38,114 nt of DNA from a virus (lineage: Duplodnaviria > Caudoviricetes). Below, one piece after another: positions 11,175-33,088 of the stretch (the first letter of the stretch is position 1; each line of letters begins with the position of its first letter). The translations under genes were made by a program, and so were the position numbers. The notes under the pieces were generated by a model, which saw nothing but the letters and a program-made list of their open reading frames with translations, was not told the origin of the DNA and ran no database searches. The stretch spans positions 1-38,114 of IMG/VR virus record IMGVR_UViG_3300038379_000845. One strand, 5' to 3'.

Positions 11175-12209
11175 ATGGCGAACATTGGAACGTTGTCGGT
11201 GCAGCTCGTGGCCGACGTGAACAAACTCGTCAAGGGTTTTGAGGCCGGCAAGAAGGCTACCGCCAAATTCGCGACGCAGGTGAAAACCGCGCTGGCCACG
11301 ATCGCGACTGGCGCTGTGTTCAACAGCCTCAAAAACGCGATTCTGGAAACGGTCGATTCCCTCGACGAGCTGGGAGAAACCGCCGGCAAGCTGGGTGTGT
11401 CGGTCGAAGCGTTGCAGGAACTGCGGCATGTGGCGCAGTTCTCCGGCGTGGAAGTCTCCGCGCTCGAGAAAGCCTTGGAGGTCATGTCCCGCCGATTGGC
11501 CGATGCCGCTGCCGAAAGCGGACCAGCGCAGCAGGCCCTGCAAAAGCTACGTCTGGACGCCGCCGCCCTCACGGCGCTCGCCCCGGAACAGCAGTTCGAA
11601 GCCATCGCCAAAGCGCTCGAGGCCGTCAACAACAGCAGCGAAAAACTGGCGCTGGCGAAGGATTTGTTTGGCAACGTCGAGATTCTGAAGACCATGCAGG
11701 GCGGCCTGCAGAACATTGTCGACTTGCGCAAAGAGGCCAGACAGATCGGCATCTTTTCCACGGAGGACGCCGAACGGGCAGGTGAACTGAACGACGCCAT
11801 CGACCGCATGGCCAAAACCGTGCGCACGGCATTTGGCGAGGCTGTCGCTGGAAATCTGGAAGACCTGTCGTTGATCGTCGACACGCTGTCCCAGGCGATC
11901 AACGGATTGATTAAGGCCGTCGGAGCCATCCCCAGGGCCGGTCGATTCTTGGGCGAAACTTTCGGCAACATGGCCGTGCCAACCACGCCTGGCGTCGCCG
12001 GGTCGGCGTTCAGTACGACGCCGACTGTGAATCCCGATGTGCAGCGACGGCTGCTGGCCGACCTGGATCGCCGCGTGTCACGCACCGGCGAGGGCTTTGT
12101 GGGCAACAAAGAAGTGCTGCGTCAACTGCAGGCGATCGCCCGGAACACGACGCCGGAACCGGATCAGCAACCGGCCACCACGGTCACCATCGCGCCGGCC
12201 AATTTTTGA
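11175..12209 (+). CDS. Tail tape measure protein (short, 344 aa)
   Basis: N-terminus MANIGTLSVQLVAD, AGKLGVSVEALQELRHVAQFSG and Ala-rich helical composition; follows the chaperone pair. Confidence 0.88.
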   Translation: MANIGTLSVQLVADVNKLVKGFEAGKKATAKFATQVKTALATIATGAVFNSLKNAILETVDSLDELGETAGKLGVSVEALQELRHVAQFSGVEVSALEKALEVMSRRLADAAAESGPAQQALQKLRLDAAALTALAPEQQFEAIAKALEAVNNSSEKLALAKDLFGNVEILKTMQGGLQNIVDLRKEARQIGIFSTEDAERAGELNDAIDRMAKTVRTAFGEAVAGNLEDLSLIVDTLSQAINGLIKAVGAIPRAGRFLGETFGNMAVPTTPGVAGSAFSTTPTVNPDVQRRLLADLDRRVSRTGEGFVGNKEVLRQLQAIARNTTPEPDQQPATTVTIAPANF

Positions 12210-12218
12210 CCAGTCATT

Positions 12219-12647
12219 TCAGTCACCTTGATCGGTTGGGACAAGCTTTCCGCAGTCACCTTGATCGGTTTGGACCACAAGCTTTCCGCAGTCCTCGCAC
12301 AGAATTTGGCCGCCGTGCAGTTGGACCAGGTGCTTGGTGAAGGTGCTCCGCAGCTCCTGCACGTTGCTCACCAGCTCGCGGCAGGCCTTTGCGTCAGCTA
12401 ACGGCGTGTCCGCGTACTTCGCCTTCCAGTCTTTCAGCATTTCGACGTCACGCCGCGTATCGAGAACGTTGTCCAGCGTGGCAATCACCGTGTCGAAGAT
12501 GTTGAGTTTCCGTCCGTCTTGCGCTGGGTGGCTTCGATTGTTGACCGCGTTGTTTATCCGCCGGGCCTGCCAGCTGATGAACGCCGAGATCGCCAGGCCG
12601 ATCACGGCCAGCATGGTCGCCACGAAATCTGACTCGATGTTGATCAA
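12219..12647 (-). CDS. Hypothetical membrane-anchored protein (moron or holin-like)
   Basis: One N-terminal hydrophobic segment, a helical body and a duplicated C-terminal DCGKLV..TDQG; GGAG RBS on the minus strand. Confidence 0.6.
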   Translation of the reverse strand: MINIESDFVATMLAVIGLAISAFISWQARRINNAVNNRSHPAQDGRKLNIFDTVIATLDNVLDTRRDVEMLKDWKAKYADTPLADAKACRELVSNVQELRSTFTKHLVQLHGGQILCEDCGKLVVQTDQGDCGKLVPTDQGD

Positions 12648-13941: not shown

Positions 13942-15650
13942 TGACCAGCAGAGCCTTTTACCTGACGCCGCGCGACGCCGCCCGCATCAAACGCGTGATC
14001 AGTCGCGTTGAGCGGGGCGAGGCCTCGGCCACCAGCCGCAGCTTCGGCCGCGACGTGCTGCCGACGCTGGCCTTTGCCGACGAGTCCATCGCACCTAACG
14101 AGTCGGGACTGGTGACGTTCGCCGCCACCGCCTTCGACGCGCCGGTGCGGGGAACTCGGCAGGTCACCTGCTGGAACCTCTCGGCCGACACCCTGACCGA
14201 AGATTCCGACGCGTTTCAGATCGAGTGGTTTTCGCTCGAAAACGGTGGCGGCGCGTGGGTGCACTATTGCTGCGGCGGCACGGCCGCGCTCAACCTTGAC
14301 GCACTTTGTCTCGATCCGATCACGCCGGTCGACGAAACAGTCGTCACCCAGGTCCGCAAAAACAACATGCTGCGGCTGGTCGAGGACCAGGATGGCCAGG
14401 GGGCGCTGGATTTCGACCCGGGTCCGATCGAGGACGCGGTGCTGAACGCCATCGGCCCGCCCGACGATAACGGGGAAATGTCGCTAGTCTGGACGAACAC
14501 GCCCAAGCTGCGCAGCCTGGAGCTGTGCGAAGGCATGCGCATTGCCTGCGACGCCTCGACGACGACGGTGGATTCGGACCAGGTCGCCATCGACGACGAC
14601 ACCGTCATCGCCGACGCGAACTGGGCCCAGGGCTACACGTTCCGGGCACCCACCATCCAGCCGCCATCGCTCTACCCCGTCGATTCGCTCGATATCCCGG
14701 TGGACAGCGATACACTGCCTGTTGACCTGAGCGGACCCACGGCGGGCGGCGAATACGACCCTCCCTATATTGATGAACAGTACCTGTACGGACCTCCAGT
14801 ACCAGCGCGGCCCGGCGGCATCATGTACGCGGCCGGCGTCTGGCTCGGTACACGCGAACGGCACGTCCAAATTGATTTCCTCCCACCAGGCCTTTCGGGC
14901 ACGCTGACCATGCCCGACGGCGGCACGTTGACATTCGTCCATGGCGTGCTAGTCGGCCAGAACGCCGTGGCGTCGTTCGCGCTCGCCTACAGCTACTGGC
15001 AACCCACGCCTGACCAGGCCTGCGTCTGCCCCGATCCCGAGGTCTACGCGCCGTGCGAAATGCCGTCGACCGACGTCTGTAGCTACGACGACCTGTGCAC
15101 GTTCACCAGTCCTGGATTTGTTTACGGGGCCGGCTTCTTCCTGGACATTAACCGCCGCATCTCACACGGCAATCCCAATGGGCAACTCTATCGGCCGGAG
15201 ACCATCAGCCAGCGTCAGCGGATTACCTTCGTGAATCCAGGTTTCAGGTTGACCCGCGGCGCCGAGCTGCGACTGATCCCGCTAACCTTGGCTGGATCGT
15301 GCTCACCATCACAGACGTCATTCATTCAATTCGTGATCGGCGAGCGGGTGAATCCGGGCGGCGGAGACGGCATCGGTGCCGAGCTGCTGTCGCAGAAGAA
15401 CGGCGTGATCACGATGTACGAAAATCCCGACATCACGTACGTCGCCGGCGCTGAGATGGAAATCCGCGCGACACACCTCGCGGCCGATCAGTATCACCTC
15501 GAATTCCTGTATAACGGTGCCGTGATCCACGACGAACCGAGCGTCGAAATCCTGTGGTTCGACCCGTTCTACCACGAGGCGTTTATTGACTCCGCGGTGA
15601 ACGGCGACGAGCTGGCGGATTATGCGATCGAGCTGACGCCGTGTTTGTAG
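13941..15650 (+). CDS. Putative tail tip/fibre-associated protein
   Basis: 569 aa, acidic, Pro/Gly/Cys-rich, in the tail module; includes LTFVHGVLV. Confidence 0.55.
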   Translation: MTSRAFYLTPRDAARIKRVISRVERGEASATSRSFGRDVLPTLAFADESIAPNESGLVTFAATAFDAPVRGTRQVTCWNLSADTLTEDSDAFQIEWFSLENGGGAWVHYCCGGTAALNLDALCLDPITPVDETVVTQVRKNNMLRLVEDQDGQGALDFDPGPIEDAVLNAIGPPDDNGEMSLVWTNTPKLRSLELCEGMRIACDASTTTVDSDQVAIDDDTVIADANWAQGYTFRAPTIQPPSLYPVDSLDIPVDSDTLPVDLSGPTAGGEYDPPYIDEQYLYGPPVPARPGGIMYAAGVWLGTRERHVQIDFLPPGLSGTLTMPDGGTLTFVHGVLVGQNAVASFALAYSYWQPTPDQACVCPDPEVYAPCEMPSTDVCSYDDLCTFTSPGFVYGAGFFLDINRRISHGNPNGQLYRPETISQRQRITFVNPGFRLTRGAELRLIPLTLAGSCSPSQTSFIQFVIGERVNPGGGDGIGAELLSQKNGVITMYENPDITYVAGAEMEIRATHLAADQYHLEFLYNGAVIHDEPSVEILWFDPFYHEAFIDSAVNGDELADYAIELTPCL

Positions 15651-15700
15651 GATTCGGCTGCTTGAGCCTCTTTCTTGACCGATTAGTGAGGATTTGGAGA

Positions 15701-16951
15701 GTGCTGATCTACGATACGTTCCACACGCCGAAGTTGAGAATTTTTTCCATTGTGCCAGGCATGGCGGCTGGCGGGGCGGAACGCTGGTTCTGCACGCTGA
15801 CCCGGCACGCGAACACCGTGCGATACGTCGGCATGTCGATCCTGAACGGCCAGGCCATCGATCTGCACCGCGAGATCGCCGGCATGCCAAACACGTTCGT
15901 CCACTCGAACGATCCCTGGATCGTGTACGAAAAGTCAGTAGCTATCCTGCGCGAGTGCGGCGGGGCCGATCTGCTGCTGATCTGGGGCCTCGGAACTCAG
16001 GCGAACGACTTTATCGACCGCTGCAAGCTGCCAGTCGTGCAGGTCAGCCACAGCGAGCCAGCACTGGCCGAGGCCGGCATCCACCAGTCCTTCCGGCAAT
16101 ACCTGGAGATGATCCGCGGCGGTAAGGCGAACTTCTTGGCCGCGGTCAGCGAGTCCGCCAGCCGGTTGTTCGAACCGCACCGCCGCGAGCAGGCCGGTGG
16201 AGTGCACGTGGTCCACAACGGCATCGAGGTTGATCGGGCCTTGGCCGGCCGCGGTCGCCAGCAAATGCGACGGCTACTGCAGCTGCCGCAAGAGGCCAAG
16301 GTGATTTTCTACTGTGGTAGAATCTCGCACGAGAAGCAGCCGCACCGGTTGGTCGAGGCCATGCATTTATTGCCGAACGATTGGCATTTGTTGATCAATG
16401 GACATGGCGAAAAGGAACAGCGGGAGAAACTCGACGGACTCGCGCAGTCCCTCAGCCCGTCGGTTTTCTCGACGCCCGGGAAACCGCTGGGCCGAGTTTC
16501 AATCCTTCAGCCACACCTCTACGGCATCGGCGATTTGATAGGAGCTTGTGATGTGCAAGTGCTCTGCAGCCAAACGGAAGCGTTCCCGCTCGTCGCCATT
16601 GAAGCCTGGCTCGGGCGGATCCGCTTCATCACGCCGGCGTTCGCGACCATGCAAGAGCTGTTTACGGCGTATAACGCTGGCGAACCGTTCTGCCAAACCA
16701 TCCCGCTCCCCGTGAAGCCGCGCGACCTGGCCGACGCCATCCTGGACGACAGCGACGCCGAACAGCATAAGGCCACGGCCTTCAAGATCGCCATGAACAA
16801 CTTTACAGCGGCCCGCATGTGCGCGAAGTGGGAGGAGTACTTTCACTGGTGCCACCAACGCTGGATATATTCCTCACAGATCGGCGAGGTCTACAACGTC
16901 CGGCCAAACGCCGCGAATCCAGGTATCGAGCCAGCGGCCCGCGAAAACTAA
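15701..16951 (+). CDS. GT-B (GT4-like) glycosyltransferase
   Basis: GGAER, VVHNGI, GRISHEKQ and SQTEAFPLVAIEA (EX7E). Start trimmed to GTG after GGAGA. Confidence 0.9.
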   Translation: MLIYDTFHTPKLRIFSIVPGMAAGGAERWFCTLTRHANTVRYVGMSILNGQAIDLHREIAGMPNTFVHSNDPWIVYEKSVAILRECGGADLLLIWGLGTQANDFIDRCKLPVVQVSHSEPALAEAGIHQSFRQYLEMIRGGKANFLAAVSESASRLFEPHRREQAGGVHVVHNGIEVDRALAGRGRQQMRRLLQLPQEAKVIFYCGRISHEKQPHRLVEAMHLLPNDWHLLINGHGEKEQREKLDGLAQSLSPSVFSTPGKPLGRVSILQPHLYGIGDLIGACDVQVLCSQTEAFPLVAIEAWLGRIRFITPAFATMQELFTAYNAGEPFCQTIPLPVKPRDLADAILDDSDAEQHKATAFKIAMNNFTAARMCAKWEEYFHWCHQRWIYSSQIGEVYNVRPNAANPGIEPAAREN

Positions 16952-16987
16952 ACGCCGCGAGTAGCCCGCCGCTGGCTCAACTTTATT

Positions 16988-17034
16988 GGTCACCGGTCAC
17001 TGGCCACCGGTCACCGGCCACCGGTCACCGGCCA
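16988..17034. repeat. Heptamer tandem repeat GG(T/C)CAC(C/T), about 6.5 copies
   Basis: GGTCACC GGTCACT GGCCACC GGTCACC GGCCACC GGTCACC GGCCAC, intergenic. Confidence 0.9.
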
Positions 17035-17041
17035 CAAATCT

Positions 17042-17425
17042 ATGATTTCCCACGAACACCGCTGTATCTTCGTTCACGTCCCGCGCACTGGCGGGACCTC
17101 GATAGAACTAGCGGTCACGGGCACCGATTGGCAATTCTCGCACCCGCGCGAAAAGCATCTACGGTGCAGCCAGGCCCGCGACATGTACGGCGACCTGTGG
17201 CACGAATACCTGACGTTCACCAGCTACCGCAACGACCAGGAGCGCTTGCAATCGGGACTGTCGAAGGGCTTCAATCGCGACGGCGTGTGGTGCCATCCCT
17301 GCGAGTGGTGGATCGACCTGTGCGTGGACGTGGTCCTGGATTTCCGCACCCTCTGGCGTGATTGGCGGCAACTGGCAAAACGGCTCGGTGTGCAGCAGGA
17401 GATTCTGGTGCCGTGGATACGCTGA
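17042..17425 (+). CDS. Short sulfotransferase-family-like protein
   Basis: MISHEHRCIFVHVPRTGGTSIE resembles the 5'-PSB loop, and FTSYRN resembles the 3'-PB motif. Shorter than usual. Confidence 0.65.
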   Translation: MISHEHRCIFVHVPRTGGTSIELAVTGTDWQFSHPREKHLRCSQARDMYGDLWHEYLTFTSYRNDQERLQSGLSKGFNRDGVWCHPCEWWIDLCVDVVLDFRTLWRDWRQLAKRLGVQQEILVPWIR

Positions 17426-18327
17426 AAATCCGGCTCGGCGAACTCGAGGAACTGAACTGGTGGCACCCGATCGAAACCGATTGGTTCCGCCAGCTGCTGT
17501 CCGAGTTTGGTGTGCAGATTGTCACCTCTGGCCAGGACGTCGATTGGATTGACGTGCGGTATGGCAGCACGATCACGGGCCCCACGATCCTATTTGACAG
17601 GCATGATTCGTCGCTCGTCACGCCGATGGCCATCCACGAGAGCAAGCGGCCTGAGGTGCTGGCGATCACGATCCCCCTGCTGGCCAGGCAGCCAGAACTG
17701 TCGATGGCCAAGCACGTGTACAATCGCGGCGAAGATTACGCTCGGCCGAAGAAACCGGTGGGCGTGATCAACACCATGCCCTGGTATCGTTGCGAGAGTG
17801 AGTTCATGCGGGACCTGATGATCCCACCCAAGACGATCACCGCATCCTTCTGCGGCACCAGCCAGTACGGCCACATTGCCTACTGCACCAATCACCGCCG
17901 ACGCATGATCGATCGTTTCCCGCGGCACAATACCGTCTGCGTGCTGCGTGGGGCCCCTGAATATTTTTTCCAGACCGAGCTGCTGCTGGACGTGCTCCTA
18001 CGTTCGCAGGTGGTCGTCTGCCCATGGGGCGTGTGCGAGATTTCCGTGCGGGATTACGAGGCTGTGCTGGGAGAATGCATGATCGTCAAACCGCGGCAAT
18101 CGGCGATGGACACCACGGAGAATCCGTGGACGGATGGCAACACAGTGTGGTGCGATCCGGATTACAGCGACCTAACCGACGCGATCTACTGGGCCGCCGC
18201 CAAACGCGATCCCGATTATTTGCACGCGTTGGCCGAACGGATGAAGGCGGTGGTGTACGACCCGCGGGTACTGGCCCAGCGAATGGCGGCCGAGCTACGG
18301 CGGATTTATCAGGAGGCGATGGGATGA
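17413..18327 (+). CDS. Putative glycosyltransferase (exostosin-like C-terminus)
   Basis: LLRSQVVVCPWGVCEISVRDYEAVLGECMIVKP; start uncertain. Confidence 0.65.
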   Translation: MDTLKIRLGELEELNWWHPIETDWFRQLLSEFGVQIVTSGQDVDWIDVRYGSTITGPTILFDRHDSSLVTPMAIHESKRPEVLAITIPLLARQPELSMAKHVYNRGEDYARPKKPVGVINTMPWYRCESEFMRDLMIPPKTITASFCGTSQYGHIAYCTNHRRRMIDRFPRHNTVCVLRGAPEYFFQTELLLDVLLRSQVVVCPWGVCEISVRDYEAVLGECMIVKPRQSAMDTTENPWTDGNTVWCDPDYSDLTDAIYWAAAKRDPDYLHALAERMKAVVYDPRVLAQRMAAELRRIYQEAMG

Positions 18328-18989
18328 CCGAACGGCACGCTTGGTATGACGGGTTTGAGCACGAGAAACAGTTTTGGGAAGGCTGGGCCAAACGAGGCGA
18401 GGCTCAACTGCTGGGGGCGGTGCGGCCGCTGGAACCGGCGATCGCCGAGCTGCTGCCTGGCAATGAGGTGCGACGTACCACGTACAGGATACTAGACGTT
18501 GGTTCAGGGGCCATCAGTACACTTGGCCGAGAGTGGCATGGACGTCCGGTGCTGATCACCCAGGTCGACGTGCTGGGCTACTGGCACGAGGCCTTGTTGC
18601 GGCGATATGGCGTCCGCCAGCCGAACACCGTTTACTCCTGCCGCGGCGAGGATATGCTGCATTTCCTGGAAGGTCGGCAGTTCGATTGCGTGTGTGCGAT
18701 CAATTCGCTGGATCACACCGAGCACCCGGACCTGGTGCTCAGGGCCATGGCCGAGCTGACCGTGGGCCCAATCTTTCTGCGGCACTATGCCTGCGTGGGC
18801 GAGCGGCTGAAATACGCCGGTCTGCACCAATGGAACGTCGACGTCTGCGACGGCCGGATGTTGATCTGGGGCCGCGGTGGCAGCCCCATGATCGACGTCA
18901 ACGAGTTACTTGGACTGTCTGGCGTCGTCCAGCTTGACCACGCGGCAGCGAATCCGACCGTCACTTGGTTTTGGCTCGGTCATTCGTAA
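18324..18989 (+). CDS. Class I SAM-dependent methyltransferase
   Basis: ILDVGSG motif I and FDCVCAINSLDH; AGGAGG RBS; ATGA overlap with the previous gene. Confidence 0.85.
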   Translation: MTERHAWYDGFEHEKQFWEGWAKRGEAQLLGAVRPLEPAIAELLPGNEVRRTTYRILDVGSGAISTLGREWHGRPVLITQVDVLGYWHEALLRRYGVRQPNTVYSCRGEDMLHFLEGRQFDCVCAINSLDHTEHPDLVLRAMAELTVGPIFLRHYACVGERLKYAGLHQWNVDVCDGRMLIWGRGGSPMIDVNELLGLSGVVQLDHAAANPTVTWFWLGHS

Positions 18990-18993
18990 GCGT

Positions 18994-19629
18994 TCAATTC
19001 GGCGTGCGGACATACAACGCGTCGCCCCAAGCTCGCTCGGGGGCGACCGTTTTCAGATTACGGTAGCCATGGCCGCGGAGGTACGAATCGATCTGTTCGA
19101 CCTCGCAGCAGCCACGGTACACCTGTTCAAAATTGACTTCGACATAAACTCCCGCGAAGCGTTGCAGCAGCAGTCCGCAGCCCTTCAGCACGTCCAGCTC
19201 CGTGCCCTGGACGTCGATGTTCAAAAAGTCGATCCCGTCCAGATTGATACCGCGCGTGAGAACCAGCGAATCGAATCGCTGGGTGACGATCTGCACCACC
19301 TGCTCGACCGTGATCCGCGGATAGAGTTCCGTGTGGGTGCCCATGGGCAACAACGAGGTCGAACCACCAGCCAGGTACAGAGGCACGCGATAGCGACCGT
19401 CGGACAAGCACGCGTCGTACAATTCGTGCTGGCACAATTGCAGCCGCCGCGGGCGCAGGTTGGCCTTGAGCAGCCCCAGCCGATACGGGTTGGCCTCGAT
19501 CCAGATCACCCGCTGAAAGCCTGCACGCTCGTACAATTCGCGTTCCTGGGCCTCGTCCGCGCCGACGTGCACCGCGCCGGTGAAGCGGTGTCCCGCCAAG
19601 CGGCAGCATTCTTCTGGTTCAATGTACAC
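18994..19629 (-). CDS. FkbM-family methyltransferase
   Basis: AVHVGA, VIWIEANP, IDFLNIDVQGTELDVLKG, VYVEV, WGDALY. Confidence 0.92.
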   Translation of the reverse strand: MYIEPEECCRLAGHRFTGAVHVGADEAQERELYERAGFQRVIWIEANPYRLGLLKANLRPRRLQLCQHELYDACLSDGRYRVPLYLAGGSTSLLPMGTHTELYPRITVEQVVQIVTQRFDSLVLTRGINLDGIDFLNIDVQGTELDVLKGCGLLLQRFAGVYVEVNFEQVYRGCCEVEQIDSYLRGHGYRNLKTVAPERAWGDALYVRTPN

Positions 19630-19640
19630 TTATCACCTAT

Positions 19641-19699
19641 TCAGTACTCAGTACTCAGTACTCAGTACTCAGTACTCAGTACTCAGTACTCAGTACTCA
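19641..19699. repeat. (TCAGTAC)8 heptamer microsatellite
   Basis: Eight perfect copies plus TCA, filling almost the whole gap between two divergent genes. Confidence 0.97.
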
Positions 19700-19704
19700 C
19701 TGCC

Positions 19705-20430
19705 ATGCTATGCGACGCCTTCATTTGCTGCGCGCCGAAAGACGAGTCCGCACTGCCGGACGTGGTGGCATCGCTGCGCAGCTACACGGACGTACAGGAT
19801 ATTTACGTCTGTTCACCCAGTCCGTTGCAATGCCAGGTCGATGTGCTGAACGTGCTGGATCACGAAGTGCTTGATTGCCGGCCTGACCTGTGGCGCTATC
19901 GGCCGAACTGGATCAAGCAGCAGTTTTTGAAACTATTTCAACATGTCACCCGCGATTGGTACTTTGTCGTGGACTGCGACACGATCCTGCTGCGGCAGCT
20001 CGATCTGTTCGTGGATGGCCGACCAGTTTGGCTGCTGGGGGCCGAGCAGTCCCATCAACCGTACTGGAAATTTCAAATCAAAATGTGCGAGCTGTATCGT
20101 AACTGCGAGCACTCATTCATTTCGCACACCGGGCTGTACGATCGAGCGGTGATCGACGCGTTGCTGCGCGATCACCATCACACCGTCGATTCGTTCCTCC
20201 GGAAAAGCTACGATATCGTGGCCGAGAACTGCTTGCCGTCGGAGTCGCAAATCTACGGCACGTACGTGGTGCAGCAGGGCGGTTTCGGCTATATCTTCCG
20301 CCGGCCGAAGCAGTGGGAAGGCACGGTGTTGCCACCGCGCGAATGGCTGTTGGCGGAGGGGTTCGAGTTGGCCACATGTCACAGGTGGGAGCTGAGTACG
20401 GAGTACGGAGTACGGAGTACGGAGTACTGA
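19705..20430 (+). CDS. Putative GT-A/nucleotide-diphospho-sugar transferase-like protein
   Basis: WIKQQFLKL and YFVVDCDTILLR (DxD). The true start is ATG 19705, not 18910. Confidence 0.7.
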   Translation: MLCDAFICCAPKDESALPDVVASLRSYTDVQDIYVCSPSPLQCQVDVLNVLDHEVLDCRPDLWRYRPNWIKQQFLKLFQHVTRDWYFVVDCDTILLRQLDLFVDGRPVWLLGAEQSHQPYWKFQIKMCELYRNCEHSFISHTGLYDRAVIDALLRDHHHTVDSFLRKSYDIVAENCLPSESQIYGTYVVQQGGFGYIFRRPKQWEGTVLPPREWLLAEGFELATCHRWELSTEYGVRSTEY

Positions 20431-20480
20431 GTACTGAATACTGAGTACGGAGCACTGAGTACGGAGTACTGAGTACGGAG
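20394..20480. repeat. (GAGTAC[G/T])12 degenerate heptamer repeat
   Basis: Twelve units spanning the stop of the upstream gene and supplying the GGAGG RBS of the next; inverted relative to the 19641 tract. Confidence 0.95.
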
Positions 20481-23491: not shown

Positions 23492-24130
23492 TCAGTTCAA
23501 TCGCCGTGAGATATCCACCAGCAACCGCCGGTCCCGCGAGGAAGCTCGCCGGAATCGTCTGATCAGGGTGCGTTCGTCCTCATCCCGCTGGTGAAGTTCG
23601 TCAGCAGTATAGAATTGCCGCGGCAGTTGCACGTCGCCGGAGGCCTGCAGTAATAACCGCAGTGGATCCAGGTAATGCGACATCACACCCAGGTGGCAGC
23701 CATGCACGATTCGCCCTGCTTCAGCATTGGCCTGCGACCATAGATTGATCCCCAGCCTTCGCAAACCCTGGGGCGTGAATTTTGATACCCCCGCGGCCTG
23801 GCAGATGCGATCCATCTCGCGGCGCAATTGCCGATGACAGCTTGTCAGATTAAATAGCCGATCGGAATCTCGTGGCAACGATGCAATGTGGCGCCGAACA
23901 ACGTTGTTCAATGGAATCCGATGGATGCGCCCCGTTTTGTTACTCCGCAGCTCAATGTTCTCGGCTACATTCTGCCACCTCAGCTCCTTCAGATCAGACA
24001 ACGCAGAGGTCGCTGGTTCGAATCCAGTCGCCCCGACTATTCCGATGATGACTTTTAGGGTAATATGCACGTGCGACCAAAGCAAATCCATGGGGCGAGA
24101 TTCGTGGATGAATTCCTGAGCGTCATTCAC
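23492..24130 (-). pseudogene. int: Tyrosine recombinase/integrase catalytic domain, N-terminally truncated at the att site
   Basis: LSDLKELRW, KTGR.HRIPL, TPQGLRR and MSHY are present. The first catalytic Arg and the N-terminal domains are absent, replaced by antisense tRNA sequence (VGATGFEPATSA). Confidence 0.7.
23997..24039 (+). other. attP-like core: 3' half of a tRNA gene (possibly tRNA-Val GAC)
   Basis: GACAA-CGCAG-AGGTC-GCTGG TTCGAAT CCAGT-CGCCCCG-A corresponds to part of the anticodon loop, 3' anticodon stem, variable loop, T arm and acceptor strand. No 5' half is present. Confidence 0.85.
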
Positions 24131-25319: not shown

Positions 25320-25456
25320 ATTAAGCGAGACACTCTGCTGAGGAGCCGGATCTCACCGGCGAAAGTGAGAACAGCTACGGACCTCGCGCGCCGTGTAGCA
25401 CTCACTATTACTCTGCACGATGGACGGCGGGGCGCTTGCCCCGTCCGTCCTATTTT
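25320..25456 (+). ncRNA. Candidate tracrRNA
   Basis: Successive hairpins; TTACTCTGCA (25408-25417) is complementary to repeat TGCAGAGTGA; ends in a 12-bp GC hairpin plus TATTTT just before the cas gene. The 5' boundary is a guess. Confidence 0.55.
25422..25456 (+). terminator. Terminator-like hairpin
   Basis: GGACGGCGGGGC-GCTT-GCCCCG(T)CCGTCC followed by TATTTT. Confidence 0.65.
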
Positions 25457-25470
25457 CACAAGGGGGAAAG

Positions 25471-26787
25471 ATGATTCGTGCGACACGTATCGAGTTGATC
25501 GTGCCGAAGGAACGCAAGCCAATCTGGAAGGAATTGGCGGAGCAATGCCAGCAGGCGACTAATCGCTTGTGGCAGGTCTGGTTGTGTCACCATGTGGCTA
25601 ACGATTCTGCCAGCAAAATGCAGGGTTATATGGATCGATATCAGTCTTGGAAAACCGACAAGATCGGTGACAAGCCGACGTGTCCCGTGAAACCGATTGA
25701 CAAGGAGTTATCAGGCAAACTCTATCACGACCTGAGCCAACGCTATCCGGCGCTGAATAGCCGCACGCGAGGCTTGCTGCAGAACAAGTGGCAGCAGACC
25801 GTCCGCACGCGTAAGGCCAGCCGCGGGAGTCTGTCGGGCTGGCTGTCGATCTTGTTTTGCCGGGAATCGATCCCCAGTTTTCAGCGGCCCGTGCCAATCC
25901 CCTTCGACAAGCAAAATGGTCGTCTCAGCAGCAGCGGCACTGGCAGGTACGTGTTGCAGGTCCGTATCGATCGCGTCGCGACGACGAATGGTAAACGGCC
26001 TGCTGGAAAATCGACGTTCGACGAGTGTGTGATGCTGCTCGGCAAACGCAAGATGTGGTCGGTCAAATTGATTGTCGACCGGATTCTGAGCGGCGAGTAC
26101 AACTTTAAGGGCTCGGCCCTATGCTACGACCGTGGCAAGTGGTTCGCGCTGGTCTCGTACGAGATGCCCGCGACCAGCGACGTGGTGCTGGATGCGGACA
26201 AGGTACTGCACGTTTGGCCAGCGCATCGAGGACCGGACAAGCGTCGCCATGAGCATCCGCGCGACGACCTGCGTCGCGGACCGTGGCTGTTCAAGATTGC
26301 CGGCCAACAACCTCGCTTCCTAGGCGGCGACGGAAAACATGTCAGTCGCTTTCGCGACCTCTTGACGCGCGGCCGCTTCGAGCGGCAGGAGCATTACCGC
26401 TGGGCCGGTTCCGCGCAGAAGGGACATGGACGCCAGCGTGCCATCGCCGCCTGGACGAAGCTGGGTTCACGGTGGAAGCATTTCGTCAAACGCTACAACC
26501 ACGAGATAACGCGTCGTGTGCTGAACATCGCCATGGAGCATCGCTGCGGCCAAATCGTGTACCACCAGCCGTTGAACACGCGGCGTGAGCGATGCTTCCT
26601 CACGGGACGTGGCAACGTCGGCGCGCGGACAGCGTGGGACTATTTCCAGTTCGGCACCCTGCTGGCGAGCAAGTGCGAGCAATACGGGATCAAGTGTGAG
26701 ATCAGGAAGAGAGAGCAGGTTCGCGATAATGGCTTTGACGAGCGAGGAAGAGATGAGACAAATTCCGACGTCGTGCCTGTTGTGTGA
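25471..26787 (+). CDS. cas12f: Cas12f-like type V effector, predicted nuclease-dead (438 aa)
   Basis: Collinear Cas12f1-like blocks: ILFCRESIPSFQRPVPI, IVDRILSGEY, KWFALVSY, LDADKVL, KGHGR, RYNHEITRRVLNIAMEHRCGQI, WDYFQFGTLLASKCEQYGI. RuvC-I GIDLG is replaced by HVWPA and RuvC-II MEDL by YHQP; the zinc finger and RuvC-III are missing. Lies next to a CRISPR array. Confidence 0.85.
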   Translation: MIRATRIELIVPKERKPIWKELAEQCQQATNRLWQVWLCHHVANDSASKMQGYMDRYQSWKTDKIGDKPTCPVKPIDKELSGKLYHDLSQRYPALNSRTRGLLQNKWQQTVRTRKASRGSLSGWLSILFCRESIPSFQRPVPIPFDKQNGRLSSSGTGRYVLQVRIDRVATTNGKRPAGKSTFDECVMLLGKRKMWSVKLIVDRILSGEYNFKGSALCYDRGKWFALVSYEMPATSDVVLDADKVLHVWPAHRGPDKRRHEHPRDDLRRGPWLFKIAGQQPRFLGGDGKHVSRFRDLLTRGRFERQEHYRWAGSAQKGHGRQRAIAAWTKLGSRWKHFVKRYNHEITRRVLNIAMEHRCGQIVYHQPLNTRRERCFLTGRGNVGARTAWDYFQFGTLLASKCEQYGIKCEIRKREQVRDNGFDERGRDETNSDVVPVV

Positions 26788-26992
26788 CCGGCTGGTCACG
26801 CAATCGGCCATGGCGGTGCTCAGTGGTTCGGCACCGTTGTGTCAGGAACATCGAACCTATCGATCCGTAATCAGGAGATTGACAGATGTCCACCAAGAAT
26901 TGGCGCACGAAATTGAACCTGGCAAGAGATCTGAAAAAACGGGGGATTCAACTGCTGTTCGAACGCATGACCGTGCTGGCGCAGGTCCATGA
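26753..26992 (+). CDS. Possible small zinc-binding protein
   Basis: GAGGAAGAG then ATG; CLLC...CQEH; overlaps both neighbours. Confidence 0.3.
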   Translation: MRQIPTSCLLCDRLVTQSAMAVLSGSAPLCQEHRTYRSVIRRLTDVHQELAHEIEPGKRSEKTGDSTAVRTHDRAGAGP

Positions 26993-27404
26993 CGATCCTG
27001 AATTCCGCGCCTGGTGCGCTGCCGAAAACCGCGACCTGTACAACGAACTCGATCACGATGTGGACGACACCGCGGCTACATTCATGACACTTAAGGCGGT
27101 GCTCGACCATTTCCCCAATCGCGAAGATTGGCAGACTAAGGGCTTGCCCACCATGATCGCGGAAATCCAGGTCAAGCAGCGCGCGGAACGGAAGCCGCGG
27201 GAAACCGTGAGCCACAAGCAGCGGGCCGACGACGCGGAGAAACTAGTGGAACAACTGCAAGACGAAGTCGATCGTCTGCGGGCCGAGAATTCGCTGCTTC
27301 GGGAACAAGTCGCCGAACTCAAAGAGTCCTTGGCCTTCGCCCACCGCACGCTGAGCAACGACTTACGAACGCGGGGTACCACCCCATGTAAGAATGCAGG
27401 GTGA
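26886..27404 (+). CDS. Uncharacterised helical/coiled-coil protein between the cas gene and the array
   Basis: AGGAG RBS; heptad-rich LVEQLQDEVDRLRAENSLLREQVAELKESL; the stop codon lies inside CRISPR repeat 1. Confidence 0.75.
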   Translation: MSTKNWRTKLNLARDLKKRGIQLLFERMTVLAQVHDDPEFRAWCAAENRDLYNELDHDVDDTAATFMTLKAVLDHFPNREDWQTKGLPTMIAEIQVKQRAERKPRETVSHKQRADDAEKLVEQLQDEVDRLRAENSLLREQVAELKESLAFAHRTLSNDLRTRGTTPCKNAG

Positions 27405-29194
27405 ATGAGAGTCAAGAAATGCAGGGTGAATGAGAGGCTGCGAGAAGTCGCCCACGAATGCCAGCGGTTCGACCAGCGGTTGATAGTTGACGTCGGCCAC
27501 GAGCTGCACCGACAACGTGTACCACCCCATGTAAGAATGCAGAGTGAATGAGAGAGCAGTCGGCTACAACCTCTTGACGAGTATCACGTACCACCCCATG
27601 TAAGAATGCAGAGTGAATGAGAGAAATCAACTTCTGGGGCCGCATCTGGGGCGGCGGTGTACCACCCCATGTAAGAATGCAGAGTGAATGAGAGGCGAGG
27701 AGGGCGAGCGATGACAGTCACACAACGTGACTGCGCGACCAGGTACCACCCCATGTAAGAATGCAGAGTGAATGAGAGGTCGCACTCGCCGGAACTCCGT
27801 CGATGCTGAACAGGTACCACCCCATGTAAGAATGCAGAGTGAATGAGAGTCGGCGAAGATCGCCGCGGTTGGTTCGGTCGTTAGGTCGTACCACCCCATG
27901 TAAGAATGCAGAGTGAATGAGAGACGTGACGGAGCTCTTGCAAGGCTTCAACGTACCACCCCATGTAAGAATGCAGAGTGAATGAGAGTCCTTGTTGCCC
28001 ACGAATCCCTCGCCGGTCCGGGAGTACCACCCCATGTAAGAATGCAGAGTGAATGAGAGTGAAGCAAGACCGGCCATCGCTCACTTCAGCATTTGGTACC
28101 ACCCCATGTAAGAATGCAGAGTGAATGAGAGACATGCCTCAGCTCTTGGAGAGCCTCGACCGACACGTACCACCCCATGTAAGAATGCAGAGTGAATGAG
28201 AGTGAGGCCCCTTTGGGTTGCGCGTTGGTCTACATCTACGTACCACCCCATGTAAGAATGCAGAGTGAATGAGAGCAGTCACCGGCCATGATGCACCTCC
28301 CGCGCTTCAGCGTACCACCCCATGTAAGAATGCAGAGTGAATGAGAGGCCCACGAACTGTGGATGTTTGAGCGCCTGGATTTGTACCACCCCATGTAAGA
28401 ATGCAGAGTGAATGAGAGAGAGGATGTCATCGGTTGCGGCCGCGGCTGGGGAGTACCACCCCATGTAAGAATGCAGAGTGAATGAGAGGAGTCATCCGAC
28501 TGCTCACACGCGAGTGTGTTGCCAGTGTACCACCCCATGTAAGAATGCAGAGTGAATGAGAGAGGCTGTCGCGAACAACCTGGTCGCCTGGTTGCGGTAC
28601 CACCCCATGTAAGAATGCAGAGTGAATGAGAGAGGGAGATGCGGCCGAACGTTAAATCGCTCACGGGTACCACCCCATGTAAGAATGCAGAGTGAATGAG
28701 AGGTGCCAGGTCGATTACCCGACTACTCAATATCGGATTGTACCACCCCATGTAAGAATGCAGAGTGAATGAGAGGCGTATCACCTCGGCAAAAGTGATC
28801 GAGACTGCATCGTACCACCCCATGTAAGAATGCAGAGTGAATGAGAGACTAAAGGCCGCAGCAAGCCGCCGCCGAGCACGCGAGTACCACCCCATGTAAG
28901 AATGCAGAGTGAATGAGAGATTACTCACAACCAACGGCCGGCCGAATAGTGACAGTACCACCCCATGTAAGAATGCAGGGTGAATGAGAGAGTCAGGTCC
29001 TCGCCGGTGCCATCGATGGCGCGGCTGTACCACCCCATGTAAGAATGCAGGGTGAATGAGAGTGCACGACCGAGCTATTCGCCTCATGACCAAAGCAGTA
29101 CCACCCCATGTAAGAATGCAGAGTGAATGAGAGTCACACAACGTGACTGCGCGACCAGGTACCACCCCATGTAAGAATGCAGAGTGAATGAGAG
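27376..29194 (+). CRISPR. CRISPR array: 25 repeats of 36 nt, GTACCACCCCATGTAAGAATGCAGAGTGAATGAGAG, 24 spacer intervals
   Basis: First repeat 27376-27411, last 29159-29194. Repeats 1, 22 and 23 carry an A>G variant (GCAGGGTG). Most spacers are 33-38 nt; outliers are 25, 29, 48 and 82 nt. Partial repeats occur at about 27415-27436 and 29200-29220. Orientation is inferred, not proven. Confidence 0.98.
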
Positions 29195-29213
29195 ATCCTG
29201 AGTGAATGAGAGA

Positions 29214-30122
29214 ATGAGAGCACCAACAAGCGGCATCTACCACGACATCGACTTCTCCACCTACCTGTCTTGGGACGCGATCAACAACAGTTCGCTCGGT
29301 CCATTGCGGATCAGCCCGGCGCACTACAAGATGCGCTTGGAAATTCCTCAGGACGATACGCAGGCCCTGCGGCTAGGGCGGCTCTGCCACATGGGCAAAT
29401 TCGAGCCGGCGGCGCTGCTGAAACGGTTTTGGGTGCTGGACGAATCGGCCCTGGCCGCGGAATGCCGCACGGCCAAGGGCGCGCCGGTCGAGTCGGTTGG
29501 CTCGGCCAAACGAACCAGGGATTGGGAGGAAAAGCTGGCAGGGATGCAAGCTCGTAACGGCAGCAAGGAGCAGGTCACGCAGGCCGAGCTTGATCAGCTA
29601 GTCGGTGTTTGCACCGCGCTGGCAGATCATCCCGTGGCCGGCCCGCTGACCAGGAGTGCACACAGGGAAGTGTCTTGGGTCCGCAAGATTCGTAGCGGGA
29701 GGAAAGTGATTGCGACGCTGAAAGGACGCATCGACCTGGTGGAACCGGGTGTCTTGCTGGCCGATTTTAAGACGGCTAGCGACATTACCGACGACGGCAT
29801 TGCCTGGTCCATCTGGCGCTGGGGCTACCATCGCCAGGCGGCGTTTTACCAGGACGCCTGGTGCGACCTCGCTGGCGAATGGTTGCCGTTCTGGCTGATC
29901 TTCGCCGAGCCAATGCCGCCGTACTCGGTACGCTGCGCGGTGCTGAACGAAGACGACATCGCGCAGGGACGGCGCGAATATCAGGCGGCCATCGAGCGGA
30001 TCATCGAATGTCGACGGCTTGATTTCTGGCCAGGCCCGTCCGATCCACCCGAGTTCCGCTTGCCGTTCAGAATGCGAACTGGGGTGGAGATCGAGGTGGA
30101 CGGGGAATTAGTGCAACTGTGA
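29214..30122 (+). CDS. PD-(D/E)XK nuclease (RecE/exonuclease VIII-like, DUF3799-type)
   Basis: GIYHDIDFSTY, SPAHY, ALRLGRLCH, LKGRIDLV, LADFKT, YHRQAAFY. The ATG comes from a partial CRISPR repeat. Confidence 0.88.
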   Translation: MRAPTSGIYHDIDFSTYLSWDAINNSSLGPLRISPAHYKMRLEIPQDDTQALRLGRLCHMGKFEPAALLKRFWVLDESALAAECRTAKGAPVESVGSAKRTRDWEEKLAGMQARNGSKEQVTQAELDQLVGVCTALADHPVAGPLTRSAHREVSWVRKIRSGRKVIATLKGRIDLVEPGVLLADFKTASDITDDGIAWSIWRWGYHRQAAFYQDAWCDLAGEWLPFWLIFAEPMPPYSVRCAVLNEDDIAQGRREYQAAIERIIECRRLDFWPGPSDPPEFRLPFRMRTGVEIEVDGELVQL

Positions 30123-30139: not shown

Positions 30140-30196
30140 TACTGAGTACTGAGTACTGAGTACTGAGTACTGAGTACTGAGTACTGAGTACTGAGT
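30140..30196. repeat. (TACTGAG)8 heptamer microsatellite
   Basis: Eight perfect intergenic copies; reverse complement of the 19641 unit. Confidence 0.97.
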
Positions 30197-31829: not shown

Positions 31830-33088
31830 AAGCTGGCGGCATGGAGCTGATGAAGTTCCGCCGATTGATGCGGCGGCTGGGAGAATCGAAACGCGGAATT
31901 GTGGGGCTGCTGGAGTGCCTGTGGTACTCGGCCGCGCACGATTGCCCGGCGGGAGACGTGGGGAAATTCACGAACGAGGAAATCGCCATCATGTGCGACT
32001 GGTCGGGCGATCCCGACGAGCTGGTGGCGGCGCTAGTCGCCTCGGGCTACCTGGACGAGCACGAACTCCACCGGCTGGTGATTCACGATTGGCACGTGCA
32101 CTGCCCGAACTGGGTGCGAGGCATCCTGGCCAGGCACGGACGGCAGTTCGCGAACGGGGAGCCGTCGAACCGCAAAGAGGCCGCGGCGGACAACTCGCAA
32201 AGGGGATCGATGGCCGCCGCGGCCGGTGGACGGCTCAGTAATCAGTACTCAGTACTCAGTACTGAGTGCAGTAGTGAGTCCGCGGCGAATTTTAATGACC
32301 ACGCGGCGGCTGGGAATACCGTTTTCGCTTCTATTACCCCAGATCGTCCAGATTGCCAATCGAACGGCGAGAAACGTCTAGTGGAAATTTCTGGGGCGGC
32401 TGGGAATACCGTTTTCGCTTCTATTACCGCAGATCGCCCAGATTGCCAATCGAATGGCGACAAACGTCTAGCGGAAATTTCTGGAAAAGCTCCTAAGGAG
32501 GCTACTATAGGAACCTCCTCTAAGGAGCCTCCTATAGGAACGTCCTCAGGGGAACCTACTATCAAGTCAAGTCAAGTCAAGTCAAGTCAAGTCTATTTGG
32601 TCAAGAGTCAAACCGTAGCTAGCCACAGCGCTGATACGCAGCCCAGCTTGACCAGTTTGACCAGAGATTTTTCGTCAGTGTGGCTTGACCTGACGGCGGA
32701 CTTCCTGAGGGAGCTGGGACGCGTGCCGCCAGGACAGGACGTCAGATTTGTCACGCAACTGGCCTGGCTGGTCGCCAGAGGCCGCCAGATAGCCCCGCAG
32801 GTCAGATCAGCCATCAACGCTGTCCGGTGCGTCTCCGTCCATCCCAGGGCCCCCTGCGCGTATCTGCGTGTGGTCCTAGCAGAGAGCCTCGGCGGTGAGC
32901 AGCAGTTGCGGGTGCTGCTGAAGGAATGTCCAACCAGAGAGGCGTGCGAGGCGATCACCAGGTTGGCACTCGAGGCGAACCTGCCGATCCGGATCGTCGC
33001 CCCGAGCATCAGGCTACGATCAGATTTCGACGAGGAGAGAGCCCGTCAAAAACTGGCCGCGGACCTGGAAAGGCTGGCGGCGGGATGA
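31826..33088 (+). CDS. Putative replication initiator protein
   Basis: N-terminal KFRRLMRRL...VGLLECLW...LVAALVASGYLD...IHDW (winged-helix initiator-like) and a central low-complexity region made of DNA repeats. Confidence 0.7.
   Translation: MKAGGMELMKFRRLMRRLGESKRGIVGLLECLWYSAAHDCPAGDVGKFTNEEIAIMCDWSGDPDELVAALVASGYLDEHELHRLVIHDWHVHCPNWVRGILARHGRQFANGEPSNRKEAAADNSQRGSMAAAAGGRLSNQYSVLSTECSSESAANFNDHAAAGNTVFASITPDRPDCQSNGEKRLVEISGAAGNTVFASITADRPDCQSNGDKRLAEISGKAPKEATIGTSSKEPPIGTSSGEPTIKSSQVKSSQVYLVKSQTVASHSADTQPSLTSLTRDFSSVWLDLTADFLRELGRVPPGQDVRFVTQLAWLVARGRQIAPQVRSAINAVRCVSVHPRAPCAYLRVVLAESLGGEQQLRVLLKECPTREACEAITRLALEANLPIRIVAPSIRLRSDFDEERARQKLAADLERLAAG
32305..32593. repeat. Repeat cluster inside the initiator gene (probable origin)
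   Basis: 90-bp direct repeat (32305-32394 / 32395-32484), three ~27-bp units containing CT(A/C)CTAT (about 32490-32562), then an (AAGTC)n run. Confidence 0.75.

Follow-up and report, generated by a model that had tools for sequence, protein, structure and literature searches.

Background

Cas12m blocks transcription without cutting and is directed at plasmids (PMC11656645), and the accessible parts of two reports place it on plasmids and some prophages (PMC11656645, PMC12669027). In the available text of Hoffmann et al., a cluster of C-terminally truncated, dead Cas12f proteins lies near CRISPR arrays, and repression is proposed for it (PMC13472631), a description which the locus treated here resembles. 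Viral type V-like effectors from landfill are likewise array-adjacent, similar in size to the present effector and without acquisition genes, according to the available part of that report (PMC12607003). The spacers of viral arrays often resemble the carrier's own genome without being identical to it, as stated in the available part of PMC7099407, and for the TldR repressors the available text describes that the phage's own gene copy escapes by TAM and seed changes (bioRxiv 2023.11.30.569447). For dCas12a placed on the lambda tape-measure gene H, an EOP of 1e-6 is given in the accessible part of PMC10695390.

In this study, we analysed the 38,114-nt stretch presented above (the window), a tailed-phage genome with HK97-type head genes, in which a CRISPR array lies beside a Cas12f-like gene and some of the spacers closely resemble the phage's own tail tape-measure gene. 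Our preferred reading, which we hold to be probable if only just, is that a dead Cas12f and its predicted tracrRNA use these self-like spacers to bind and silence the tape-measure gene of close rival phages.

The phage genome

A second assembly runs from the end of the window into its start across about 10 nt, therefore the genome is probably a complete circle. Both contig ends (1-267 and 37942-38114) belong to a tandem repeat with a unit of about 120 nt and copies that are 78-88% identical. Four tandem tracts of a 7-nt unit with the palindrome AGTACT (19638-19700, 20385-20480, 30140-30196 and 32234-32267) occur in both orientations and are mostly intergenic. The stretch that separates the tail genes from the tail spike (15641-20430) contains a glycosyltransferase gene, a sulfotransferase-like ORF and a DUF6492 ORF, which perhaps serve virion or host-surface modification. 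A tyrosine-integrase-like ORF on the minus strand (23492-24130; PHROG 216, E 7e-4) seems to lack its N-terminal part. The stretch 24005-24040 at the break resembles what we take to be the 3' half of a tRNA, and ARAGORN and Rfam gave nothing for it; possibly an attP lies inside a split or broken integrase.

A phage-borne dead Cas12f module

The module and its array comprise the following features.

25322..25455, plus strand: predicted tracrRNA; conserved core found by nhmmer and cognate-repeat pairing, 5' end approximate
about 25400-25417, plus strand: anti-repeat of the tracrRNA, pairing with the 3' part of the repeat
about 25421-25450, plus strand: terminator-like hairpin of the tracrRNA, fold z -3.0
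25471..26787, plus strand: Cas12f1-like effector gene, 438 aa, predicted nuclease-dead
26886..27404, plus strand: partner gene, 172 aa; helical N-domain and C-terminal coiled coil, pLDDT 94
27376..29194, plus strand: CRISPR array with 25 repeat copies of 36 nt; most spacers measure 33-38 nt, both ends ragged

The order is thus tracrRNA, dead Cas12f, partner gene and array, with no cas1, and the tracrRNA region lies directly upstream of the effector gene. The top PDB match of the effector is AsCas12f both by sequence (E 8e-16) and by fold (E 2e-21, model pLDDT 89), against a fold E of 2e-6 for Cas12m2. In the alignment Trp249 takes the place of the RuvC-I Asp and His365 that of the RuvC-II Glu, and both zinc finger and RuvC-III are absent, therefore the effector is predicted not to cut DNA. 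Among the 120 homologues listed of 127 found, none has the RuvC-I Asp, one has the RuvC-II Glu and none has the C-terminal CxxC. Homologues occur in IMG/VR phages, in metagenome contigs and in two planctomycete MAGs, and on account of these MAGs a planctomycete is the likely host of this phage.

A tracr profile built on five seed loci (nhmmer) matches 31 of 44 other family loci, a set that was not dereplicated and holds many short contigs, and all matches lie on the effector strand. In 13 loci with both parts, cognate anti-repeat/repeat pairing ranks first in 8, and the cognate energy sum was reached by 0 of 100,000 permutations, five of the 13 being seeds picked for pairing; the eight non-seed loci rank 1, 1, 1, 2, 2, 3, 4 and 6, and four of them share nearly the same repeat end. 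Searched alone, the tracr motif retrieved seven new viral loci, six of which carry the effector and all of which carry arrays. The candidate has no Rfam match, and a promoter scan gave a result at chance level.

Loss of the catalytic residues and the ragged array ends might suggest a decayed, non-functional CRISPR remnant. We regard this as scarcely credible: the residue loss is nearly family-wide while conservation elsewhere is strong, tracrRNA and repeat co-vary, the array repeats hardly vary, and for one spacer there is a 34/35 match to a co-occurring contig.

The partner gene has a homologue in 35 of the 44 other family loci; of the nine loci without it, all but one stop no more than 345 nt from the effector. 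It is also present in four of the seven motif-retrieved loci, and absent from records G412 and G415. No protein family was found for it in Pfam, PHROGs, NCBIfam or PDB beyond coiled-coil matches, and the Atlas gave leads only, namely DUF3102, Plasmid_parti_N and Translat_reg, with scores of 0.90 or below. Our guess is that it acts as a co-repressor.

Arrays were found in 20 of the 44 other family loci, and Cas1 in none of five phage records, thus the spacers are presumably host-written. Across the family loci L036-L085 and L128-L137 the repeats are all about 36 nt long and the spacers come in two lengths, near 30 or near 36 nt, which suggests two different host acquisition machines. Three viral contigs of 122-364 kb (L046, L047 and L048) carry two tandem dead-Cas12f genes with several tracr copies and arrays, part of them on the opposite strand, and on another viral contig (L036, 1-3200) repeats about 310-630 nt apart resemble integron attC-type cassette ends.

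In the present phage, the direction of the array (plus strand) is fixed by the pairing of the tracrRNA with the 3' part of the repeat, therefore the 5' end of each spacer is PAM-proximal. The array is wedged into an operon, with the stop of the partner gene inside the first repeat and the start of a RecE-like exonuclease gene (29202-30122) in the last repeat remnants. The short last spacer (29134-29158) repeats the 3' part of composite spacer 4 (27695-27742), which indicates recombination within the array.

Self-like spacers and the tape-measure gene

The tape-measure gene, its self-like sites and the spacers concerned are as follows.

11175..12209, plus strand: tail tape measure gene, 344 aa; PHROG 9483, best E 6e-35
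11190..11222, minus strand: self-like site 1, codons 6-16; 32/33 against an orphaned spacer piece
11397..11431, minus strand: self-like site 2, codons 75-86; two spacers with a common 5' end
12078..12112, minus strand: self-like site 3, codons 302-312, in a poorly conserved region
27437..27518, plus strand: composite spacer of 82 nt behind a half repeat; its 3' 33 nt form the 32/33 self match
27924..27952, plus strand: spacer 7, in antisense to the tape-measure gene; guide positions 3, 6, 9, 12, 15, 21 and 27 differ from self
27989..28023, plus strand: spacer 8, antisense; self mismatches at 3, 15, 18, 30 and 33
28132..28166, plus strand: spacer 10, antisense; forms a synonymous pair with spacer 7, and guide positions 8, 12, 15, 18, 20, 21 and 24 differ from self

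The gene closes the head-tail gene run, after which a long non-coding or unassigned stretch starts. The preliminary description had aligned four spacers with it, with 32/33, 22/29, 28/35 and 30/35 matching letters, and all four alignments were reproduced at the same coordinates. All 20 mismatches are synonymous as had been claimed, since the protein of ORF 11175-12209 is unaltered when the letters of any of the four spacers are inserted; 18 of them are third-position and 2 are first-position changes, CTC/TTG and AGG/CGG swaps included. In a shuffle test the best match outside the array was reached by 0 of 300 shuffles for each spacer, with null maxima of 24, 20, 25 and 25 for the 32/33, 22/29, 28/35 and 30/35 spacers, respectively. 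Randomly placed mismatches were all silent in 0 of 20,000 trials for each of the two 7-mismatch spacers; the probability is 0.00035 for the 5-mismatch spacer and 0.26 for that with a single mismatch.

Two particulars of the earlier account need correction. Spacers 7 (27924-27952) and 10 (28132-28166) start at the same base and share one site with its 5' end at 11431, thus the four alignments define three sites and not four. The 32/33 alignment is exact, but the piece concerned is not a free-standing spacer, being the 3' end of the 82-nt composite 27437-27518; its own upstream repeat is lost, the nearest repeat half lies 49 nt upstream, and the sole mismatch is at position 4.

All three sites fall within one gene that makes up 2.9% of the genome; with the first site given, P is about 8e-4. 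Our preferred reading gives no reason for this clustering, for which either a hot spot or the exchange of a module may be considered. The remaining spacers have no own-genome match above background (for those of normal length 23/37 or lower, and likewise at the protein level). Self-likeness appears peculiar to this phage, since none of 77 spacers of other family members was convincing. Targeting of the tape measure across the family was considered and set aside: among 202 spacers only those of this array scored clearly against the tape-measure profile, and here spacer 8 had no clear score. A general antisense bias was likewise dropped, at 7 of 20 once the four are left out (model accuracy 75%), as were capsid-like readings of two other spacers, which had rested on motifs and found no support in searches. 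Read in antisense, spacers 9 (28060-28095) and 12 (28276-28311) resemble gene starts, with a stop or ribosome site followed by ATG, and several spacers may target the first 20 codons of genes (spacers 9 and 12, site 1 and, by eye, two targets in run X1).

Donors of the spacers and a target outside the phage

The preliminary description derived the spacers from sibling phages with the same peptide. This is still the best reading, given star-shaped alleles and identity in an unconserved region, although no sibling was found. At site 2 (11403-11429) all nine codons vary among spacer 7, spacer 10 and self: spacer 7 has three private changes, spacer 10 and self have two each, and at the remaining two codons no two alleles agree. 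The alleles are thus star-shaped, which indicates three lineages and no series of ancestors. Residues 302-312 at site 3 rank 314 of 334 conservation windows, among the least conserved, and 7 of the 11 residues are shared by 0 of 158 tape-measure homologues; the peptide is nevertheless identical, which makes the donor a close relative. From the sequence comparison, the spacers most likely came from close relatives.

The donors had to be deduced in this way because no sibling with any of the four spacer alleles was found, and the carriage of these alleles by related phages drew a blank in IMG/VR and run X1. An IMG/VR search with the tape-measure protein gave 33 loci, two of them identical copies and the rest at 38% or less, and a degenerate pattern for site 2 matched there only this phage's own gene and array. 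A protein collection gave self and 10 matches at 39% or less (189-602 aa), with no shorter sibling among them. The nearest non-identical homologue, at 45%, came from a library clustered at 50%, which is blind to relatives above 50%. No sibling contig at 80% was found in run X1 (77% covered), which may be the source sample, INPHARED phages gave 3 chance matches only, and an array search of 401 genomes of the phylum of G008 gave 21 weak matches, none of full length.

One spacer has a target outside the phage:

29063..29097, plus strand: spacer 23; non-self target at 34/35 in a 151-nt contig of run X1

Run X1 is from the same habitat, the 5' flank of this target ends in ACT and, by eye, the target appears to lie on the sense strand. 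The 5' flanks in the phage's own genome end in GCC at site 2 and in ACT at site 3; there, provided that the protein is conserved, the next codon dictates flank positions -2 and -3. A weak lead to a PAM with C at -2, perhaps 5'-RCY, can be drawn from this one true target and the two own-genome flanks. A partial 31-nt target match of spacer 14 has the flank TCA.

The self-likeness might also be a by-product of gene history, with a tape-measure module recombined from the targeted lineage or with spacers taken from the phage's own ancestors. This would account for matches in this gene only, and the RecE-like exonuclease gene directly after the array and the 32/33 piece, which is closer to self than synonymous saturation allows (P 0.00065), both fit it. 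The private changes at site 2 argue against serial ancestors, and the normal GC3 and codon use of the tape-measure gene give no compositional sign of a foreign module; altogether we find this history improbable.

Why only silent differences

Escape through silent sites, which the preliminary description had read out of the silent-only mismatches, is not implied by them, because purifying selection gives the same pattern. Such mismatches would be expected from purifying selection together with the loss of self-reactive guides. Codon divergence (7/9, 6/11 and 5/11) stays within ordinary synonymous saturation, mismatches are not enriched in the seed (12/18 codons near the PAM against 6/13 away from it, p 0.22), and a rare-codon signal is not significant (P 0.07, 0.11 and 0.87). 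Signs of a filter against self are present: guide position 3 is a self mismatch in both spacer 7 and spacer 8, spacer 10 departs from self at position 8 and at four more positions within 20 nt, and the sole near-perfect self match (32/33) is the one without its repeat.

The preliminary description also suggested that mismatch-tolerant binding damps the phage's own late gene, which might for example time tail production. In its favour, the first 7 nt of spacer 10 match self perfectly as a seed next to the GCC flank, the self flank of spacer 8 is that of the one real target (ACT), and dead TnpB relatives bind with short seeds, according to the available text of bioRxiv 2023.11.30.569447. However, the best self match is disabled, matches of RCY plus a 7-nt seed occur in the own genome for 8 of 23 spacers and are hence common, spacers decayed in place would lose the reading-frame peptide, and no relative shows self-like spacers. 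We therefore disfavour self-regulation and think it very unlikely.

Spacers 7 and 10 are not the only twins. Synonymous pairs at the same site number 3 of 1,329 within arrays, against 0 of 18,972 between arrays (202 spacers, 25 loci), and they lie in three unrelated arrays, with an identical peptide and 6-9 silent nucleotide differences. The two foreign pairs are located as follows.

L133, 11560-11589 and 11692-11721: synonymous spacers in another phage
L038, array 11798-12288: synonymous spacers in a second other phage

For the three pairs, the probability that all differences are silent is 0.0046, 0.0024 and 0 of 20,000, and one pair includes a TCG/AGC serine swap. No twins with an amino-acid change or with just 1-5 differences were found, save one 34/35 duplicate. 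Three overlapping pairs compare with 0.83 expected if all spacers came from one 40-kb lineage (P 0.05), and P falls to 0.009 when such a common donor is assumed for half of the pairs, in a test prompted by pairs spotted by eye beforehand. For the targets of the two foreign pairs, IMG/VR returned the arrays themselves or nothing, and the 401 genomes gave none.

These twins in two other arrays keep silent-site escape alive as an explanation. Siblings may target each other at few sites, answer by synonymous recoding of several codons, and then be re-acquired at the same site; recoding of several codons would be needed because a non-cutting binder tolerates mismatches. The system would be the same as in our preferred reading, and only the cause of the mismatches differs. 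We consider such an arms race unlikely, although deserving of attention. Apart from the twins, it is favoured by the variation of all nine codons among the site 2 alleles (P 0.12 even at full saturation) and by the TldRs, whose seed is about 6 nt long and whose binding is highly tolerant of mismatches, as the available text states (bioRxiv 2023.11.30.569447). It is weakened by the lack of seed enrichment (p 0.22), by site divergence within ordinary saturation alongside normal GC3 and codon use, and by an excess of overlapping pairs that is just modestly above expectation in a test prompted by eye; moreover, a self-tolerance filter predicts the same twin excess. In its boldest form, which we offer tentatively, this phage family tells kin by a barcode, the synonymous codon choice in essential genes; rivals recode whole patches while their protein stays the same and are re-acquired at the same site, and the twins are a fossil record of it. 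It is similarly doubtful, if conceivable, that the reader of such a barcode is a non-cutting, mismatch-tolerant Cas12f with a dedicated partner protein, engaged in a phage-versus-phage silencing arms race.

A proposed mechanism

The preliminary description does not name the nuclease-dead effector, the tracrRNA or the partner gene, on which the mechanism turns. In our preferred reading, host Cas1-Cas2 would write spacers into the array, and the tracrRNA:crRNA would load the effector, which would bind beside a C-containing PAM (lead 5'-RCY) without cutting. Once bound, the complex would block RNA polymerase on essential genes of other mobile elements, including phages that co-infect or superinfect the cell, and the partner protein would perhaps reinforce the block. 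Purifying selection on the tail protein would leave silent differences only, and guides too similar to self would be lost or disabled, so that only guides against synonymously distant siblings would persist. Expression, binding and silencing are in this scheme conjectured from what the DNA itself holds, namely the matches, the module, the loss of catalytic residues and the lack of cas1. The precedents of lambda H and Cas12m indicate that a transcription roadblock suffices in principle. On the other hand, a protein-identical sibling could borrow the tails of this phage in a mixed lytic infection, and a prophage phase is uncertain because the integrase gene looks broken; both speak against this reading.

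For a widespread, barely described phage-borne dead-Cas12f system, a concrete target class can now be named, a tail gene of close relatives. The system is ready for test, with a 438-aa effector, a tracrRNA with a co-varying anti-repeat, a PAM lead and natural sets of self and rival alleles. Should it repress, it would be a miniature CRISPRi system of natural origin with which phages compete; should the twins stem from escape, they would show that CRISPR pressure makes sibling phages diverge at synonymous sites.

Comparison with known systems

We infer that the system works like Cas12m or CRISPRi in inter-phage competition, and that it stands outside the active V-F1, the V-M, the sigma-E and the transposon-linked kinds. 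Unlike Cas12m, the present effector belongs to another clade, is nearest to AsCas12f and has a conserved tracrRNA candidate. Cas12m is not known to need a tracrRNA. What is shared with Cas12m (V-M) is, in the available parts of PMC11656645 and PMC12669027, an inactive RuvC and the silencing of essential genes of competing elements by binding.

The closest likeness by both sequence and fold is to AsCas12f (type V-F1 Cas12f1; PDB 8J12/8DZJ/7WJU), which is of similar size (the 400-500 aa class), and type V-F1 also has a tracrRNA with an anti-repeat to the 3' part of the repeat, here a computational prediction, and an array of 36-nt repeats. In contrast to AsCas12f, to which identity is about 20%, the present effector has the catalytic Asp and Glu replaced and the zinc finger and RuvC-III missing, and in contrast to V-F1 the system is phage-borne with a conserved coiled-coil partner gene.

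The main system of Hoffmann et al., in the available text, combines sigma-E with a single guide and no tracrRNA (PMC13472631), whereas here there is an array with a tracrRNA, and no sigma-factor gene matched among the 45 window ORFs scanned. Their array-linked example, likened here by description, lies in a Chitinophagaceae genome with its target upstream of an efflux system (available part of PMC13472631). The landfill effectors form, in the part of PMC12607003 available to us and compared by description, a 19-member clade without RuvC motifs for which binding without cutting is suggested; that part describes no tracrRNA, partner gene or targets. TldR repressors resemble the present effector as dead, RNA-guided repressors of the TnpB family, some on prophages, and differ from the array system in having one fixed guide against host promoters and no CRISPR array, according to the available text (bioRxiv 2023.11.30.569447). 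CRISPR-associated transposons (Cas12k, CasMu-V) are described in the accessible part of PMC10910872 with an adjacent Tn7- or Mu-type transposase, and no gene for either was found among the 45 window ORFs scanned.

Viral mini-arrays carry spacers against related viruses that are close to the carrier's genome (available parts of PMC7099407 and PMC11656645). The self-like silent matches seen here would imply related viruses as spacer targets, although no sibling was found. Mini-arrays, as far as these sources describe them, have 1-2 spacers and no cas gene and borrow a host nuclease, whereas the present locus has 25 repeats and its own effector, predicted not to cut. In the literature covered, judged by title or by the text available, no paper describes this module or spacer twins with synonymous differences. 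Published work already covers silencing by dead Cas12 and viral arrays directed at related viruses, and what is new here is the tape-measure target together with the synonymous twin spacers.
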